DNA from: a virus
DNA: 34,760 bases
Strand: one strand, 5' to 3'
Virus record (IMG/VR): IMGVR_UViG_2600255154_000001
Span: 1-34,760 of that record
Shown here one piece after another: positions 1,091 through 8,012 of the stretch. Below the pieces are notes generated by a model. It saw nothing but the letters and a program-made list of their open reading frames with translations. It was not told where the DNA came from and did not search any database. The translations under genes and the position numbers were made by a program. How positions within the stretch are numbered: the stretch's first letter is position 1; every line of letters begins with the position of its first letter.

Positions 1091-2411
1091 AGGGGTTGCG
1101 GTCGACACGACCGGTGGCACCCTCGATCTCGACTGGGGGTTCTGGGACGCCCAGCTCGACGCGATCGCGGCGCTGGAGTCCGGCCAGTACGACGTCGTCA
1201 ACTTCCGGGGTGGCTACGGCTCCGGGAAGACGATCCTTGGCTCGCGATGGATTATGGAAAAGGCGACGGAGGTCTCCGGCTCTGACAACCTGATCATCGC
1301 ACCGGACTCCCAGAAGGGCGGACCGACGACGTACAAAGTCTTCTTCGAGGAGCTCCCAGGCGAGGACACCGTCCCCGACGAGGGCGGCGACCCCGAGAAC
1401 TCGCCGTTCGTTGCCGAGTACAACCGAAACGAGCGGCGCATCACGTGGTTCAACGGCTCGGTCGTCCGTCTCGGCAGCGCCGACGTCTGGAACCGGTACG
1501 CTGGCGGGGAGTTCAACGCCATCTGGTGTGACGAGGTCGCTCACTACGAACACACCGACATTTTCGACCTCAACCGGATGCTGCTCTCTCGACAGCGCAC
1601 CCGTGATGGGCCGAACGTCACCCTCTGGACGTCGACGGGGAACGGGTATAACCAGTACCACGACTTCGTCGAGCTCCAGGAGACACCCGACGGTGACGAT
1701 CTCCCGACGCGCCTCATCAACGTCGTCGCCGACTCGCGGAACAATCCGTTCCTCTCCGAGAAGGAGAAGCTGGTTCGGCAGTTCGAGGGAACGGCGAAAG
1801 AGGATCAGGGCCTCGCCGGCGGCTTCGCCGCTGCGGAGGGACTCGTCTACTCGGAGTTCTCACGACCCACACACGTCCGCTCTCGTTGCGACGTTGACGT
1901 CCGAGACGACTGGCGGCTGTACGGATACGACTACGGGTTCAAGGACCCGCGTGTGCTGCTGGAGATCGGCAAGACGCCGGCTGACCAGTACGTTGTGCTC
2001 GACTCATACTACGAGCGCCAACAGCCGGTCGAGCACCTCGTCGACCCTGACGATGGCTCAGGTTGGGTGATCCGGGAGGAGAAGCCCACCGGAGAGCTCT
2101 ACTCCGACCACGAACCCGAGCACATCCAGAAATTCCGTGACGCTGGCTTCGAGGCGTACGCCGCGACTAAGGACATCAGTGAGGGTATCGACGAAGTACG
2201 GAGCGTTCTCGACACTGACGTCGACGATCGTCCTGGTCTCCTCGTCCTCGAGGACTGCACGGATCTCATCAAGGAGTTTCAGAGCTACAAGGAGGAAGAC
2301 GTCGGGACGAGTCGGGCCGATGACCACGCCCTCGACGCGCTTCGGTACGCCCTGATGGGCGATCGGTATGTTGAGGAAGACGATGGCGCCGGCGGCTCGG
2401 GGACCTGGTGA
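1074..2411 (+). CDS. terL: Terminase large subunit
   Basis: Walker A GGYGSGKT, Walker B AIWCDE, nuclease motifs YDYGFKDP and DHALDALRY; start moved to ATG 1074, which follows GAGGAGG at 1061-1067. Confidence 0.95.
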   Translation: MSITSKGVAVDTTGGTLDLDWGFWDAQLDAIAALESGQYDVVNFRGGYGSGKTILGSRWIMEKATEVSGSDNLIIAPDSQKGGPTTYKVFFEELPGEDTVPDEGGDPENSPFVAEYNRNERRITWFNGSVVRLGSADVWNRYAGGEFNAIWCDEVAHYEHTDIFDLNRMLLSRQRTRDGPNVTLWTSTGNGYNQYHDFVELQETPDGDDLPTRLINVVADSRNNPFLSEKEKLVRQFEGTAKEDQGLAGGFAAAEGLVYSEFSRPTHVRSRCDVDVRDDWRLYGYDYGFKDPRVLLEIGKTPADQYVVLDSYYERQQPVEHLVDPDDGSGWVIREEKPTGELYSDHEPEHIQKFRDAGFEAYAATKDISEGIDEVRSVLDTDVDDRPGLLVLEDCTDLIKEFQSYKEEDVGTSRADDHALDALRYALMGDRYVEEDDGAGGSGTW

Positions 2412-3913
2412 TACCTATGGCTGATGATACTACCGAGACTGATGAGATGACGGGAGCATCGACCGACGACGTCTCCGATGCTGATAGCGTGGAGGAACTC
2501 ATCGCTGCGGATGACGGGTTCTCGTCCCGCCAGGAGTTCCAGATGCGGTTCGCCCTTGCCCAGGCGCTCGGTGATAACCTGCCGGGAGACGAGGACTACT
2601 ACGAGGTCTTCAACTGGGATGAGCAGCCCACGATTGAGGACTTCTTCTCGCTCGCGCTCCGGAACCCGTACGCCTATGCGGTGACCTTCCTACCACCGCA
2701 AACGACGTGGCGAGACCCGCCGAAGATATCCGATAAAAAAGAACCCTCCGGGGACGTCGATGAGACGGAGTTCGAATCGGACGTCAACACCCTCGTCGAC
2801 GATCTCCGTCTCTGGCACTACTGTCGTCGCTCGGACAAACTCGCCGGCATCGGGAAATTCGGCGTTCTCGTTCTCGAGTTTGACGACACCAATTCGACGG
2901 ATGATTTCTCAAGTCCGGTTGACGAAGGGGCCGAGCTGACTGGTCTCCGGCCGTTCTCTCGGATGTCGGTCACGGACCTCTCAGTTGGCGGTCCGGGTTC
3001 GGGGCGCTGGGGAGAACCACTCGAATATACACTCGACTTTTCGGACGAGAACGAGACGGAAAGCATCATCAGCCAGAAGGGGCCGGAAACGATCGACGTC
3101 CATTGGCAGCGGGTGATCCACATCCCGAGTGAGGAGCTGCTGGACGATGAGCTCCGAGGCGTGGAGCGACAGAAGCCGGTCTACAACAACCTGATCGACA
3201 TCGAGAAGTCGCTCGGCGCCGCCGGCCAGCTGGCGTATCGGGCGGCCGCCTGGGGCATCCACGTCAACATCGACAAGGATTACCAAGTGGACGATGACGG
3301 TGATAAACTCCGAGAACACCTTCAGCGCTGGCAACACGGCTTGGAGAACGTTCTACGCACTCACGGCGCCGACGATGTGAAGAGTCTCGGTGGTGAGGAC
3401 ATCGATCCCGGTCCCATCATCGACCCGAATGTCGAGGCGATCTCCGCCCAGACCGGCATCCCTCAGAGCGTCCTCAAGGGGAACGAGACTGGCGAGCGGG
3501 CGACGTCTCAAGACCTCAAGGAGTGGTACGGGAAGATCGCTGAGCGGCGGAACGAGTTCGTCGAACCGCAGATCGTCCGGGCACTCCTCGACCGGCTTCG
3601 AGACATCGGCACGATCGCGGACCCCAAGGGCGAGGGATACGACGTCGACTGGACGCCACTGGCGGAGATGTCCGAGGCCGACCGGGCAAACGTCCGGGAG
3701 ACGCGGGCGAAGATTCTCGACACCTGGCCGTTCGCGACGGACCTGCTGACTCCGGAACAACAGCGTGCGTTCGTCGAAAACGGCGAGATCCCGTCCGAGC
3801 TTGAGCAGACGGAGCTCCCGCCGTTGGATGAGTCGAACCCAGACGTCCAGGCTCAATTTGACCGCCTCAAGGCGCTTGCCGACGGCGGCCAGGTGGCTGA
3901 CAGTGGCCAGTGA
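2408..3913 (+). CDS. Portal protein (DUF1073-like)
   Basis: About 500 aa directly after terL; GIPQSVLKGNETGERATSQD and WYGKIAERR segments are typical of this portal class. Confidence 0.88.
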   Translation: MIPMADDTTETDEMTGASTDDVSDADSVEELIAADDGFSSRQEFQMRFALAQALGDNLPGDEDYYEVFNWDEQPTIEDFFSLALRNPYAYAVTFLPPQTTWRDPPKISDKKEPSGDVDETEFESDVNTLVDDLRLWHYCRRSDKLAGIGKFGVLVLEFDDTNSTDDFSSPVDEGAELTGLRPFSRMSVTDLSVGGPGSGRWGEPLEYTLDFSDENETESIISQKGPETIDVHWQRVIHIPSEELLDDELRGVERQKPVYNNLIDIEKSLGAAGQLAYRAAAWGIHVNIDKDYQVDDDGDKLREHLQRWQHGLENVLRTHGADDVKSLGGEDIDPGPIIDPNVEAISAQTGIPQSVLKGNETGERATSQDLKEWYGKIAERRNEFVEPQIVRALLDRLRDIGTIADPKGEGYDVDWTPLAEMSEADRANVRETRAKILDTWPFATDLLTPEQQRAFVENGEIPSELEQTELPPLDESNPDVQAQFDRLKALADGGQVADSGQ

Positions 3914-4910
3914 AGACCCGACCCGGACAAAGACCATCCGTCGAACCTACGAACAGCGTCTCCGGGGCGGATTCGGGCGCATCAACTCGACGATCCGGGA
4001 GGCCGTAATCAAGGACGACGTCTTTGGCCTTCGAGAACCGGAAACGTCTGACGGCGTGGAGGTCTTTGCAGCTGACGACGTCGACCCCCCGCCAGACCTT
4101 CGGACGTTGTCGGAAGCTGAACAGGTGGAGCGCTTCGAGGAGTGGCTTGCCGAGGCTCAGGAATCGGAAGTCCTCGAGGTCATCGAGCGTGACGAGAACC
4201 GGTTCGTTCGACGGGCGTACGAGCGTGGCCTCGAGGACGCTGATACGAACCTCCGGAAGGCAGGTGTTGATGTTCCGGGGACCGACGTCGAGTCCCTGAT
4301 GCGGCGGCCAGTTCACGAGGAACGGCTTCAGCTCATCTTCTCGAGGAACTTCGCCGAGTTGGATGGTATCACGAACGCGGTCTCTCAACAGGTCTCCCGT
4401 GAGCTGGCTGACGGGATTGCACAGGGGCAGAGCCCGAGTGCGATCGCACGCCGGATCACTGATCGGGTCAACAAGATTGGGAAGACGAGGGCGTCGGCCC
4501 TGGCTCGTGACCAGGTCGTCTCAACGCACGCGGAGGCGACACTGCAGCGCTACAAGGAGCAGGACGTCGAGGAGGTCGGTATCGACCCAGAGGTTCGCGT
4601 TTCCACTGCCGGCGACACCCTCGTCTGTGACCGCTGTCAGGCGGCCGCCGATGGCAGCCCTTACACGATCGAGGAGCTCGAGCAGAACTCGCATCTCCGA
4701 CCTGCAATCCATCCGAACTGCAGGTGTGCCGTGGTCCCCGTGGCGAACACCGAGGCGGCAGCCGCCTACCGAGCCCATCCCACGGCATTCCGGGAGTTAC
4801 ACGCGGTTGGTGCGTTCCGTCGCGGTGTAACCTACGAGGCGCTCGCCGGCGCCGATCGTGATGGCGCTGCCGAGCTGGTGGCGACGCATACGGGTGCTGT
4901 TCTAGCGTGA
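3903..4910 (+). CDS. Head morphogenesis protein (SPP1 gp7 / MuF family)
   Basis: After the portal; ARDQV, CDRC and HPNCRC motifs; start inferred at GTG 3903, overlapping the portal end. Confidence 0.88.
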   Translation: MASEDPTRTKTIRRTYEQRLRGGFGRINSTIREAVIKDDVFGLREPETSDGVEVFAADDVDPPPDLRTLSEAEQVERFEEWLAEAQESEVLEVIERDENRFVRRAYERGLEDADTNLRKAGVDVPGTDVESLMRRPVHEERLQLIFSRNFAELDGITNAVSQQVSRELADGIAQGQSPSAIARRITDRVNKIGKTRASALARDQVVSTHAEATLQRYKEQDVEEVGIDPEVRVSTAGDTLVCDRCQAAADGSPYTIEELEQNSHLRPAIHPNCRCAVVPVANTEAAAAYRAHPTAFRELHAVGAFRRGVTYEALAGADRDGAAELVATHTGAVLA

Positions 4911-4920
4911 CCTGACCGAC

Positions 4921-4975
4921 CAGGTCCGATGACCCCCTGACGAATTCACGTGAGAGCGTGCGGGGCGAGGACCTG
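4921..4975 (+). promoter_or_regulatory. Predicted kink-turn RNA element upstream of the prohead protease gene
   Basis: CAGGUCC/GGACCUG stem, GAU bulge, tandem G.A/A.G pairs, C.C pair, CCCC/GGGG stem. Confidence 0.55.
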
Positions 4976-4990
4976 GGCTGCATTTGAACT

Positions 4991-6346
4991 ATGGACGATA
5001 CACAGGACATCCGCGTCTCGGCGCGGACAGCGCGACTACTCGCCAGCGATGACGACGTCGATGACGGCCCACCGTGGCGGTTTTCGGGCGTCTCTGTCGC
5101 TGCGGGTGACATTCTCCATATGGATGACGGGACGCCAGTCCTGTTTACCAAGGAGGAATTGCGTAAAGCCGCCGAGACTCAGGCTGGCGAACCGCTCACC
5201 AAAGACCACCCGGCGGACGAGTCGGGCAACCCACAGTATCCCCCACCGACCGACGAAACGGTTGGAAAGGTCCCGAAGGCGAACTACGTCGAGGCCCACG
5301 AGGCCGTCGGGTACGAGGCAACCACCCACGTCAAGGAGATCGCCCAGGGCGTCCAGGGCGAAAGCTACGACGTCTCCGTTCATCCGACGTTCGAGCTCGG
5401 AGAGAAGGACCCCGAGACGGGTGCATACATCGCTCGGAACATCCAGTTCCTCGATCTCTCGGTCGTCAGCAAGGGCGACTCTCCCAGCAACACGGCCAAG
5501 TGGGGGCCCAATCAGGCGCTGGCGTCAGCGACCCGGTCGGGCGAGATCACAGCTGAACTGACGTCTACCGGTGACGGAGCTGATGGAAGCAGTACGCAAG
5601 GGGGCGTCAGAGAAGCAGTTCGTGGGACGCTCGATGCGCTCGGTCTCTCCTTTGCGGACGTCCAGGCGGACGCCGACGGCTGGCAGCCATCTGACGGGGC
5701 GGGACATCTCCCGACCGAAGACGGTGACGGTGGACAGCGCGGGAACGAAGGGGCGGAATCCTCTGCGGATCGCGGTTCTTCAACACAGATGGACGAAACC
5801 ACGCGAGAGCAGTACGTGTCGTTCCTGACCGCGAACGCCGGCTTCGACGAGGAGTCGGTCAACGCGATGGACGACGACGTACTCGAACGGACGTACGAAC
5901 TCGCCGCTGAAGGCGCCGCCAGTGATGGCGGCGGTGACGGGGGCAGCACTACTGAGGACGACGATGACGAGGAGAAGACGCTCGCCGAGATGACGCCGGA
6001 TGAGGCAGCGTCGGAACTCGGCGATGCGCTTCGCGACCAGGGCTTCATCACCGAAGACAACGCGGACGAGGTCGTCGCGCAGGTGAAGGAAGAAGCCTCG
6101 AAGGGAGAGAAGGTCGACGCGATCATCGCTCACAGTGACGACTACGATGAGGATGACCGGGAAGATCTGATGGCCTCTGCGGACAGCCTCGTCGAGCGAG
6201 AGCACGATCGAGTTACTGGGCAGAGTGGCGTCAGCATCTCTGGCTCCGCCGGCGTGACGGCGTCGGTTGGTGCCCCGATGCCCGGCGCCGCTGACGGTGA
6301 GGCCGACGATCTCGATGACTACGACACGGGCGTCGCGGACCAGTGA
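4991..6346 (+). CDS. Prohead protease / scaffold protein
   Basis: Between MuF and the capsid genes; N-terminal folded domain with DHP and LSVVSKG motifs; long acidic low-complexity C-terminal scaffold. Confidence 0.8.
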   Translation: MDDTQDIRVSARTARLLASDDDVDDGPPWRFSGVSVAAGDILHMDDGTPVLFTKEELRKAAETQAGEPLTKDHPADESGNPQYPPPTDETVGKVPKANYVEAHEAVGYEATTHVKEIAQGVQGESYDVSVHPTFELGEKDPETGAYIARNIQFLDLSVVSKGDSPSNTAKWGPNQALASATRSGEITAELTSTGDGADGSSTQGGVREAVRGTLDALGLSFADVQADADGWQPSDGAGHLPTEDGDGGQRGNEGAESSADRGSSTQMDETTREQYVSFLTANAGFDEESVNAMDDDVLERTYELAAEGAASDGGGDGGSTTEDDDDEEKTLAEMTPDEAASELGDALRDQGFITEDNADEVVAQVKEEASKGEKVDAIIAHSDDYDEDDREDLMASADSLVEREHDRVTGQSGVSISGSAGVTASVGAPMPGAADGEADDLDDYDTGVADQ

Positions 6347-6357
6347 GGTGATCCTGA

Positions 6358-6849
6358 ATGGCACCACTATCTACTGAGAACTCGGTCAAGGCAAAGACCC
6401 ACAACCAGCCTGCGTTCGACGACGACGTCGCTCTCGAGGAGCTCGAACCTGGCCAGGGCGCTGTCCGCGGTGACGGCGGCTTCGCAGCTGCCGGCGTCGA
6501 CTCGCCGACCAAGCGGGTCGTCCGCGAGCAGCGAAACCCGGGTGGGCTCGGCATCGAGGACGATGAAAGTCCTCTGATGAAGTCGTACCCGGCAGGGAAG
6601 AACGCGGAGACGCTCGGCTTCCAGAGTCACGATCAGGCCCGCCTGCTCGTGGCCTACGCCGACGTCGACGGCGATGGATCCAACGACACCTACCAGGAGG
6701 GCGCCGATCTCGGCTGGAACGCCAACGGCTACCTCGAGGTGATCAGTGGCGGCACCCCCACAGAGGCTGTCGGCTTCATCGCACAGGAGGAGAGCGTGAC
6801 GATGGCCAGTGCAGACAACCCGACCCACGTTCTCGTGGAGTTCTACTGA
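6358..6849 (+). CDS. Probable head decoration / capsid cement protein
   Basis: 163 aa, Gly-rich, beta-type, immediately before the major capsid gene; preceded by GAGGTGAT. Confidence 0.65.
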   Translation: MAPLSTENSVKAKTHNQPAFDDDVALEELEPGQGAVRGDGGFAAAGVDSPTKRVVREQRNPGGLGIEDDESPLMKSYPAGKNAETLGFQSHDQARLLVAYADVDGDGSNDTYQEGADLGWNANGYLEVISGGTPTEAVGFIAQEESVTMASADNPTHVLVEFY

Positions 6850-6860
6850 GGTGATTCACT

Positions 6861-8012
6861 ATGTCAACTAAGTCTAACGTTACGGAGCATCAGCCGGAGA
6901 TGGCCGAGGAGTTCGAGGGCCCCAGCCGCCTACACGAGACGGCGCTGTTCAACCCGGTTCGGCGGGCTCGGGAGAAGGCGTGGAAGCAGATCCGCGCCCA
7001 GTCCCCGCTCGGTCCTGACCAGTGGGACGACCTCGACGAGGCGGTCGGAATCAAGAACCCATCTGCAGAGCTCACTGCGGACTCGACGGTCACTGTCGAC
7101 TCCTGGCAGGAGTACGCGGAGACGATCCTCGATGACCAGTTCGTCGAGAGCACGGTGATCGACCAGCTGCTCGGCGCTGGCTTCGGCGTGTCCACCAGCC
7201 TGTTCCGCTACGCGTACTTCGACCGTCTCCGTAGTGAGCGGATGGAAGCCGATCGGACGATGAACGCTCGCTCTCGAAGCGTGCAGTCGATGCCCAGCCA
7301 CGGGCTCCACGGTGTCCCGCTCTGGGTCCACCACGTCGACTACGAGTTCGACAGCCGGGAGTTCCAGAACGCGATGCAGTTCGGCGACGACCTGGACACG
7401 TCGATCGGGCAGGAAGCTCGTCGAGCGCTCAACCGCTCAGAGCACGGGCTTCTGTGGAACGGTGAGGGCCGCGAGATTCAGACCGAGCGTGGAACGCTGA
7501 TGGTCACCGGTCTCGACACGGATGACAGCCTGATTCTCCAGGCCTCTGGGTCGAACGGCTGGATCAACGATCCGAACGAGATCCTGGCGGACTTCAAGGA
7601 ACTCCACGATACGATCGAGGACCAGACCGACGTCCAGGACACCGACGACGTCCCGCTGGTTTCGCAGGTCGGCGGCTGGGTGTTCGTGCCGCGCGCCCTC
7701 TGGGGTGAAGTCGACCGGGAAGACTACGAGACGTCCGCGACCGACGAGCCGATTATGGAGCGGCTCCAGCGGAAGTACCCGTACATCAACATCGTCCCGG
7801 CCCCGCGGCTGGATGCTGACACGTGCATCCTGCTGCTGAACGACCCGCGGTACTTCCAGATCGTCACTGCCCAGGGCGTCACCAACACGAACTGGGAGGT
7901 CGACGGCGGGTTCGGACTCCGCAACAAGACGCTCAGCTCTCGGACGCCGTTCGTCCGTCGCAGCCCCGACGGCATCCGTGGACTCGTTCGGATGACCGGC
8001 ATCAACGCCTGA
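6861..8012 (+). CDS. Major capsid protein (HK97 fold)
   Basis: 383 aa at the canonical position; ALNRSEHGLLWNG segment and a C-terminal beta strand pattern typical of HK97-fold capsids; preceded by GAGGTGAT. Confidence 0.85.
   Translation: MSTKSNVTEHQPEMAEEFEGPSRLHETALFNPVRRAREKAWKQIRAQSPLGPDQWDDLDEAVGIKNPSAELTADSTVTVDSWQEYAETILDDQFVESTVIDQLLGAGFGVSTSLFRYAYFDRLRSERMEADRTMNARSRSVQSMPSHGLHGVPLWVHHVDYEFDSREFQNAMQFGDDLDTSIGQEARRALNRSEHGLLWNGEGREIQTERGTLMVTGLDTDDSLILQASGSNGWINDPNEILADFKELHDTIEDQTDVQDTDDVPLVSQVGGWVFVPRALWGEVDREDYETSATDEPIMERLQRKYPYINIVPAPRLDADTCILLLNDPRYFQIVTAQGVTNTNWEVDGGFGLRNKTLSSRTPFVRRSPDGIRGLVRMTGINA

Follow-up and report, generated by a model that had tools for sequence, protein, structure and literature searches.

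A conserved kink-turn hairpin ahead of the prohead protease/scaffold-like gene of haloarchaeal tailed viruses, and its likely recognition by host L7Ae

It is established that archaeal L7Ae represses translation through kink-turns (k-turns) that it binds in the leaders and the coding regions of mRNAs (PMC5539422, PMC6298567). All k-turns tested fold upon binding of L7Ae, while a C at position 3b and a C:G pair at -1b:-1n confer folding in metal ions alone (PMC6298567). In the l7ae leaders, the k-turns contain few Watson-Crick pairs; 3b = C (or 3n = G) is absent from all of them bar one, and C:G never occurs at -1b:-1n (PMC6298567). They fold only with L7Ae, and the Shine-Dalgarno (SD) site lies inside their C (canonical) helix (PMC5539422, PMC6298567). 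Here we describe a k-turn hairpin in a provirus record from IMG/VR, IMGVR_UViG_2600255154_000001, the whole 34,760 nucleotides (nt) of which were analyzed and are called the window below. The hairpin lies between the gene of a MuF-like head morphogenesis protein and a prohead protease/scaffold-like gene, and it is compared with the l7ae leaders, the double K-turn of RNase P and the box C/D k-turn.

The hairpin comprises 57 bases (4920-4976), beginning 9 nt past the MuF stop codon and ending 14 nt before the protease AUG. Its parts, in 5' to 3' order, are the following:

4920-4927, + strand: C helix, 5' (bulged) strand CCAGGUCC, in which -1b and -2b are the invariant CC
4928-4930, + strand: bulge L1-L3, GAU
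4931-4933, + strand: G1b and A2b of the tandem sheared pairs, followed by 3b = C
4934-4937, + strand: NC (non-canonical) helix, 5' strand CCCC
4938-4946, + strand: asymmetric internal loop UGACGAAUU, 9 nt opposite a single C, containing the conserved YGA
4947-4960, + strand: apical hairpin, CACG (4947-4950) pairing with CGUG (4957-4960) around the loop UGAGAG
4961, + strand: lone unpaired C on the 3' side; A in nearly all relatives, where it is the A of the second GA
4962-4965, + strand: NC helix, 3' strand GGGG
4966-4968, + strand: 3n = C, G2n and A1n
4969-4976, + strand: C helix, 3' (non-bulged) strand GGACCUGG
4977-4990, + strand: 14-nt spacer from helix to start, of lower G+C and without an SD motif

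These parts show the standard features of a k-turn. The 3-nt bulge GAU stands between a C helix of 8 Watson-Crick base pairs (bp) and the NC helix, and directly 3' of it lie the tandem G.A/A.G pairs, invariant while the adjoining pairs covary. The non-Watson-Crick pairs are G4931.A4968, A4932.G4967 and C4933.C4966. An earlier note, made from the letters of the window, had placed every base of the motif correctly and had seen the C-stem where it is, although this stem has 8 bp (4920-4927 with 4969-4976) and not the 7 that it counted. In nearest-neighbour folding, which handles the k-turn motif as an internal loop, the minimum free energy fold includes the C-stem with pair probabilities of 0.99-1.0, and the energy of the hairpin is -29.5 kcal/mol.

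Taken as a single sequence, the hairpin is within what chance would provide. The z-score of the fold of the region is just -1.0, and for a descriptor consisting of an 8-bp C-stem, a 3-nt bulge, GA/GA and a 4-bp NC helix the expectation is 0.25 matches per simulated window, with at least one match in 21% of the simulated windows of this composition; weaker descriptors give 5-36 matches per window. The element is judged to be real because of its conservation and covariation in relatives, and not because of single-sequence statistics.

The relatives were gathered through their homologues of the protease/scaffold protein, with no use of the k-turn motif. A search with the single protein of the window gave zero matches in both collections, IMG/VR contigs and haloarchaeal genomes, and an alignment of ten homologues was used instead. 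The element was found in the MuF-protease spacer of 42 of the 47 protein-anchored loci that include the gene start. These loci cover at least seven genera, the hosts including Halorubrum, Haloarcula, Halosimplex, Natrinema, Halostagnicola, Haloparvum and Halarchaeum, and in the isolates HJTV-4 and Humcor1 the element sits in a MuF-protease spacer of 74-84 nt. Complete virus genomes contain a single copy each, in the head module and without annotation; the proviral copies are the sole copies in five host genomes, and a genuine copy of class 1, the class to which the window belongs, is present in 3 of 151 sampled Halobacteria genomes. Identity within the element is 81-83%, versus approximately 70% in the coding flanks.

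Among 37 distinct copies, both GA dinucleotides are invariant. The bulge always has 3 nt and reads GAU in 36 copies and AAU in one (RAU in 37/37). Position 3b is C in all of them and 3n is C in 34 and A in three, giving 3b.3n pairs of C.C and C.A, respectively. The -1b:-1n pair is C:G in 37/37 and the -2 pair is C:G in 36/37. L116 is a compensated case, with G:C at -2 and an NC helix of GGCC/GGCC. Around this core the helices change in sequence on both strands. The NC helix is found as CCCC/GGGG, CCCG/CGGG, CUC/GAG, CCUC/GAGG and GGC/GCC, and further as CGC/GUG, CGU/GCG, GGC/GCU and GGCC/GGCC, with two-sided changes at all four of its pairs. The same is seen at the six model pairs of the apical helix (helix 3), and the outer pairs of the C-stem (helix 1) also covary, being fully compensated to CUCG/CGAG in L094. 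In total, two-sided changes occur at 15 of 19 pairs in the covariance-model alignment of 26 class-1 copies, an alignment that is fitted to the model and so biased toward structure. In these copies 84.8% of the cells are paired, versus no more than 52% after sliding of the partner column, and none of 500 shuffles matches the observed values. For the pairs next to the k-turn, the 37 copies were in addition scored by distance from the invariant GA, which leaves zero alignment freedom. Given the approximately 35 G.U cells, the sense strand is the strand that folds. The pair U4925:A4971 is formed in the window, and its equivalent (12:82) is unpaired in 23 of the 26 copies, with the base unpaired or bulged.

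The five loci that lack the element have short or unrelated spacers. As judged by the comparison of sequences, the hairpin is real, strand-specific and under selection. The k-turn that the earlier note proposed at the MuF/protease boundary is genuine and conserved, the covariation by which it was to be checked is present, and its GA pairs and bulge did not turn out to be unconserved.

The same cannot be said of the second fold that had been proposed, in which GACCUG at 4909-4914 pairs with CAGGUC at 4921-4926 and excludes the k-turn. This would make the region a two-state switch, set by L7Ae or by terminating ribosomes. The 6-nt complement is present in the window, and the bulge follows the MuF stop at 9-22 nt in all relatives, so near that the 5' strand of the C-stem must be opened for a time by ribosomes terminating there. 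However, an equal or better complement is found in 23% of shuffled upstream sequences, and the predicted pair probability of the upstream hairpin is approximately 0, its energy being -11.4 kcal/mol against -29.5 for the k-turn hairpin. In the relatives the longest upstream complement has a mean of 4.18 nt, versus 4.39 nt in shuffles, which shows no excess. The competing hairpin is therefore at chance level, energetically negligible and unconserved, and a switch of this kind is extremely improbable.

When compared with the l7ae leaders (Daume et al. 2017; Huang, Ashraf and Lilley 2019), the viral element has the terminal loop on the NC-helix side, as in half of those leaders, and L7Ae is the ligand to be expected. 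The two differ in several respects. The viral element has 8 + 4 GC-rich pairs, 3b = C and C:G at -1, from which protein-free folding is predicted; the start region is left uncovered, and the element lies inside a polycistronic viral transcript; and the gene that it precedes encodes a virion assembly protein, not L7Ae. It is thus not of the kind that is unstable without protein, given that 3b = C and -1b:-1n = C:G are invariant and the energy is -29.5 kcal/mol, and it does not cover a ribosome site, given that the AUG lies 14 nt past the helix and the spacer holds no SD. A weak, protein-dependent switch like that of the l7ae leaders is the opposite of what the 3b and -1 identities and the long GC-rich stems predict. 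The element would work like the known L7Ae/k-turn mRNA elements, but without two of the features that define the l7ae leaders.

Folding alone would not lead one to expect an invariant bulge with its flipped-out U at L3, whereas recognition by proteins of the L7Ae family would, as in the complexes of L7Ae and 15.5K. The invariant GAU bulge and the tandem G.A pairs are features that these proteins recognize, as had been supposed from the window. L7Ae is encoded in all five of the provirus-bearing host genomes that were checked, while the window itself encodes no L7Ae and no L7Ae-like domain was found in it. The viral hairpin is most likely a docking site for the L7Ae of the host.

The distance between the element and the start codon points to what such docking might do. 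From -1n to the AUG there are 22 nt in the window and 20-24 nt in 19 of 26 relatives with spacer-type copies, increasing to 31-32 nt in the Humcor1-like group. In the window there is no SD in the 14-nt spacer, the sole GAGG being 20-24 nt upstream of the AUG. In the Humcor1-like loci L067, L078, L080, L081, L083 and L100, the protease start is preceded by ACAUGACAUGA, a three-codon mini-open reading frame (ORF; AUG ACA UGA) with a stop that overlaps the real AUG, an arrangement that looks like those of termination-reinitiation.

On balance, we lean slightly towards a constitutively folded, L7Ae-occupied element that lies in the polycistronic head transcript and tunes the expression of the protease/scaffold through initiation at its SD-less start. 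The k-turn hairpin would fold constitutively in the mRNA, as the 3b and -1b:-1n identities, the GC-rich stems and the high-salt cytoplasm lead us to expect, and would be occupied in the cell by the L7Ae of the host, with two copies on the relatives that have tandem k-turns. This would hold a compact ribonucleoprotein at a near-fixed distance from the AUG, where it would act on translation initiation at the SD-less internal start and set the output of protease/scaffold relative to the upstream low-copy genes, raising or lowering it. Constitutive occupation is favored because the element differs from the l7ae switch in the features that determine dependence on protein and because the start is left uncovered; the near-fixed spacing to an SD-less AUG favors an effect on initiation over mere protection of an RNA end.

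Several considerations weigh against this mechanism. The occupancy by L7Ae is something that we infer. Neither the start codon nor the spacer lies within the helix and no SD is masked, so that the occlusion known from the l7ae leaders is not directly applicable. Repression by an abundant host protein just before high-copy scaffold and capsid genes would be counter-intuitive, and the gene concerned includes a low-copy protease. Moreover, three relatives carry the hairpin inside an ORF, in L093 without a nearby start, and a role in initiation only is therefore not universal. Added to this are the five relatives with short spacers in which the element is missing, and the bias of the fitted alignment toward the model.

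In these three relatives, L092 (2247-2298), L093 (1920-1961) and L116 (1501-1584), the copy is in frame within a single protease-scaffold ORF, between the two domains, and GAU GAC is read as Asp-Asp; the stems differ among them yet remain complementary. In L092 and L116 the hairpin is followed after 13-28 nt by an in-frame AUG, from which internal initiation could yield a scaffold-only product; in L093 no in-frame start follows nearby. Nested expression of protease and scaffold is well known in tailed phages and herpesviruses, as in lambda C/Nu3 and UL26/UL26.5 of herpes simplex virus. The hairpin of L092 and L116 is similarly placed, between the protease and scaffold domains and before an in-frame AUG, and we know of no such RNA structure at the internal start of either of those systems.

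L116 has in addition a minimal hairpin (CC GAUGA CCCC GUC GGGG CGA GG) at approximately 775-870, between the MuF stop and the protease start. Minimal hairpins of the form CC-GAUGA-C-CCC...GGG-C-GA-GG with complementary flanks were also seen in further viral contigs of high GC, namely L235 (3918-3941), L270 and L296, L238 (1414-1437) and L260, and L279 (6995-7017) and L243. The open frames that contain them are very long and have N-termini that match the protease domain; these hairpins may either be additional members within ORFs or match by chance in acidic coding sequence. In L098, a provirus of Haloarcula montana, two copies (1301-1370 and 2407-2476) flank two ORFs inserted between MuF and protease, and the upstream copy has C.C at -2, reading CGAGC where others read CGAGG.

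The intra-ORF copies followed by an in-frame AUG and the duplicates around inserted genes in L098 would also be explained by the main rival to L7Ae-dependent tuning of initiation, an architectural RNA that acts independently of L7Ae, or of protein altogether, as a processing boundary and 5' stabilizer. The transcript would be cut upstream, and the self-folding hairpin would shield the protease/scaffold/capsid RNA from 5'-to-3' decay, so that the downstream RNA accumulates above the terminase/portal/MuF part. The long, GC-rich stems with their -29.5 kcal/mol fit such a role, as do 3b = C and -1b:-1n = C:G, which predict folding with ions only (PMC6298567). On our reading of the sequences of the relatives, the lack of a conserved promoter motif upstream places the element within a longer transcript. 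Nonetheless, folding alone does not need an invariant bulge sequence, a simple 5' cap structure has no use for the tight 20-24 nt spacing to the AUG, and the copy of L093 lies inside an ORF without a downstream start. A stabilizer of this type is thus considered unlikely, and the two remaining rivals, a released small RNA and an operator for a viral protein, are less likely still.

A tandem form of the element, class 2, occurs in the MuF-protease spacers of nine loci (L071, L072, L073, L077, L084, L085, L089, L094 and L102). Here, a perfect second k-turn follows straight after a 3-bp middle helix, in the order helix, GUC/GGC bulge, GA, C.C or C.U and a covarying stem, and then GA again on the way back. 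One helix thus serves both k-turns, as NC helix of the first and as C helix of the second, and all helices covary. The internal loop of class 1 is homologous to the bulge and GA of this second k-turn: class-1 copies, including that of the window, have retained YGA in the 5' strand and, in most cases, GA in the 3' strand, and no simple second k-turn can be drawn in them because of extra nucleotides. The window is the sole copy with a C (C4961) in place of the 3' A, and this replacement of the A of the second GA leaves it without a canonical second k-turn; its 5' side, made up of a 4-nt loop, GA and 3 extra nt, is also 3-4 nucleotides longer than such a k-turn requires. L073 carries at 2459-2489 a 19-nt tandem duplication of the C-helix 3' strand and spacer (AGAGGTTCTGGACTCCTTT, twice), which is absent from the near-identical L085.

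The topology of class 2 is that of the double K-turn in P12 of RNase P (Lai et al. 2017, PMC5499556), and by analogy would predict two copies of L7Ae and a fold-back shape. As worded in PMC5499556, the shared helix of RNase P has only three base pairs, taken here to include the G.A pairs since a 2b,2n substitution is placed in this helix. Against that description, the shared helix of class 2 is longer, with G.A, A.G, C.N and three Watson-Crick pairs, and its context is a viral mRNA, not a ribozyme.

The k-turn of box C/D RNAs is formed by a C box (RUGAUGA) and a D box (CUGA), and these RNAs also have C'/D' boxes and single-stranded guides. The viral element shares with it the GAU bulge and the order GAUGA followed by a non-Watson-Crick 3b.3n. 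It differs in that the 3' strand reads (G)CGA and not CUGA, that 3b.3n is C.C and not U.U, and that the NC helix extends into a stable stem. Guides and a C'/D' motif are missing. The window itself reads CCGAUGA and GCGA, with the flanks of these would-be boxes base-paired, and is not a box C/D small RNA (sRNA). In Rfam 15 there were no matches at the gathering threshold in the window and 11 related loci; below the threshold, with E-values (E) of up to 10, the best matches were unrelated and no snoRNA or sRNA model matched.

These comparisons bear on the possibility that the hairpin leaves the transcript as a small and stable non-coding RNA with L7Ae bound to it, either box C/D-like or of a new class, acting in trans through its conserved single-stranded loop. 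The resemblance of GAUGA to a C box, the sRNA-like size of a compact hairpin of 57-70 nt and the conservation of the loop, GUACGACACC / GUUCGAAUC, would suit such an RNA. Its D box (CUGA), C'/D' pair and free guide region are all missing, as is any Rfam match even at E up to 10, and ribosomes must translate through the intra-ORF copies. A released RNA is therefore very unlikely.

The left end of the window is the head module of a tailed virus. Among isolates, the haloarchaeal viruses HJTV-4 (Natrinema) and Humcor1 (Halorubrum coriense) come nearest, with approximately 70% nucleotide identity over the head genes. The genes and signals of the module are the following:

972-2411: large terminase
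2408-3913: portal
3765-4910: MuF-like head morphogenesis protein (Pfam Phage_Mu_F, 1.7e-14; PHROG 758, head morphogenesis, 4e-40)
4908-4910, + strand: MuF stop codon TGA, from the ORF list
4991-6346, + strand: prohead protease/scaffold-like gene, 451 aa, with ATG at 4991
6358-6849: small ORF
6861-8012: HK97-like major capsid protein

The longest MuF ORF begins with GTG at 3765 and shares approximately 150 nt with the end of the portal ORF (2408-3913); translation of MuF probably starts at a more downstream codon. A frameshift at the end of MuF, hinted at by an ...RVLF* ending in an alternative frame, was discarded because the annotated frame fits the C-terminus of HJTV-4 MuF.

Searches of Pfam and PHROG with the 451-aa protein gave zero matches. 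In an AlphaFold model built from the ten homologues, its N-terminal domain is of moderate confidence (predicted local distance difference test of 70-86), and residues approximately 30-165 match the T4 gp21 capsid assembly protease (5jbl; E 1.4e-5, probability 1.0) and also predicted prohead proteases, including that of Halobacterium phage ChaoS9. Past this domain there are long helices and acidic disordered stretches, and the Humcor1 homologue carries the annotation prohead protease. It is reasonable, on the basis of the model, to regard the protein as a fusion of prohead protease and scaffold.

The strict linkage of the hairpin to a single gene boundary of the head module raises the possibility that it is an operator for an RNA-binding protein of the virus, such as the protease/scaffold or MuF, controlling its own translation or that of its neighbor. 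The conserved YGA of the internal loop, which a single k-turn does not explain, would find a use there. However, the conserved core is GAUGA...GA, the generic k-turn of the L7Ae and box C/D type, the window shows no L7Ae-like domain of its own, and Pfam and PHROG detect no RNA-binding domain in MuF or in the protease/scaffold. A viral operator is accordingly quite unlikely.

Other candidates were rejected. A promoter upstream of the hairpin is not indicated, as the sequences of the relatives have no conserved TATA-like motif 25-30 nt before the helix, and an intrinsic terminator is not, as few relatives have a U-run after the hairpin. Stop-codon recoding or selenocysteine insertion does not fit, as TGA, TAG and TAA all occur as the upstream stop and the 83 nt that separate stop and start do not keep the frame. 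The likeness of GUUCGAAUC, from Humcor1-type copies, to a tRNA T-loop was dismissed as the flanking T-stem is absent and the sequence varies elsewhere. Among the searches for further copies, the class-2 covariance model (R2) gave matches with E <= 0.01 in 44 of the 151 haloarchaeal genomes; these were discarded, E-values being untrustworthy in such composition, and the best 20 loci that were inspected were ordinary coding sequence without the GAUGA...GA signature. L117, a match of R1, was a false positive. With loose DNA patterns, the matches listed were mostly chance in GC-rich coding DNA, with a few, uncounted, surviving a filter for flank pairing.

No description of the element was found in the GenBank records of HJTV-4 and Humcor1, in the Humcor1 paper or in the literature searched on k-turn/L7Ae together with archaeal or haloarchaeal viruses, and it is apparently a cis-acting RNA element undescribed so far. 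To our knowledge, structured cis-regulatory RNAs are almost absent from what has been reported on archaeal viruses. This one is a small, sharply defined and covariation-rich motif that is present in cultivable systems, namely the Humcor1 provirus of Halorubrum coriense and HJTV-4 on Natrinema, and it is therefore directly testable. Its class-2 form is a natural tandem k-turn outside RNase P, and in its intra-ORF copies one RNA structure is maintained under coding and structural constraint at once. If L7Ae binds the element, the control of mRNAs by L7Ae reaches virus assembly genes, beyond l7ae and a few cellular mRNAs. A broader proposal, which we put forward tentatively and hold to be possible rather than probable, is that haloarchaeal tailed viruses use a k-turn or double-k-turn module, placed in the MuF-protease spacer or in frame between the domains of protease and scaffold, to recruit host L7Ae to their late mRNA and so set the stoichiometry of protease and scaffold, either by SD-independent internal initiation or by gating of the ribosome flow at a fixed distance from the hairpin. 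If true, it would be the first case of a virus encoding an element for translational control that depends on L7Ae, and a handle on ribosome initiation at SD-less internal starts in haloarchaea, and the element may reveal how these organisms use such start codons.

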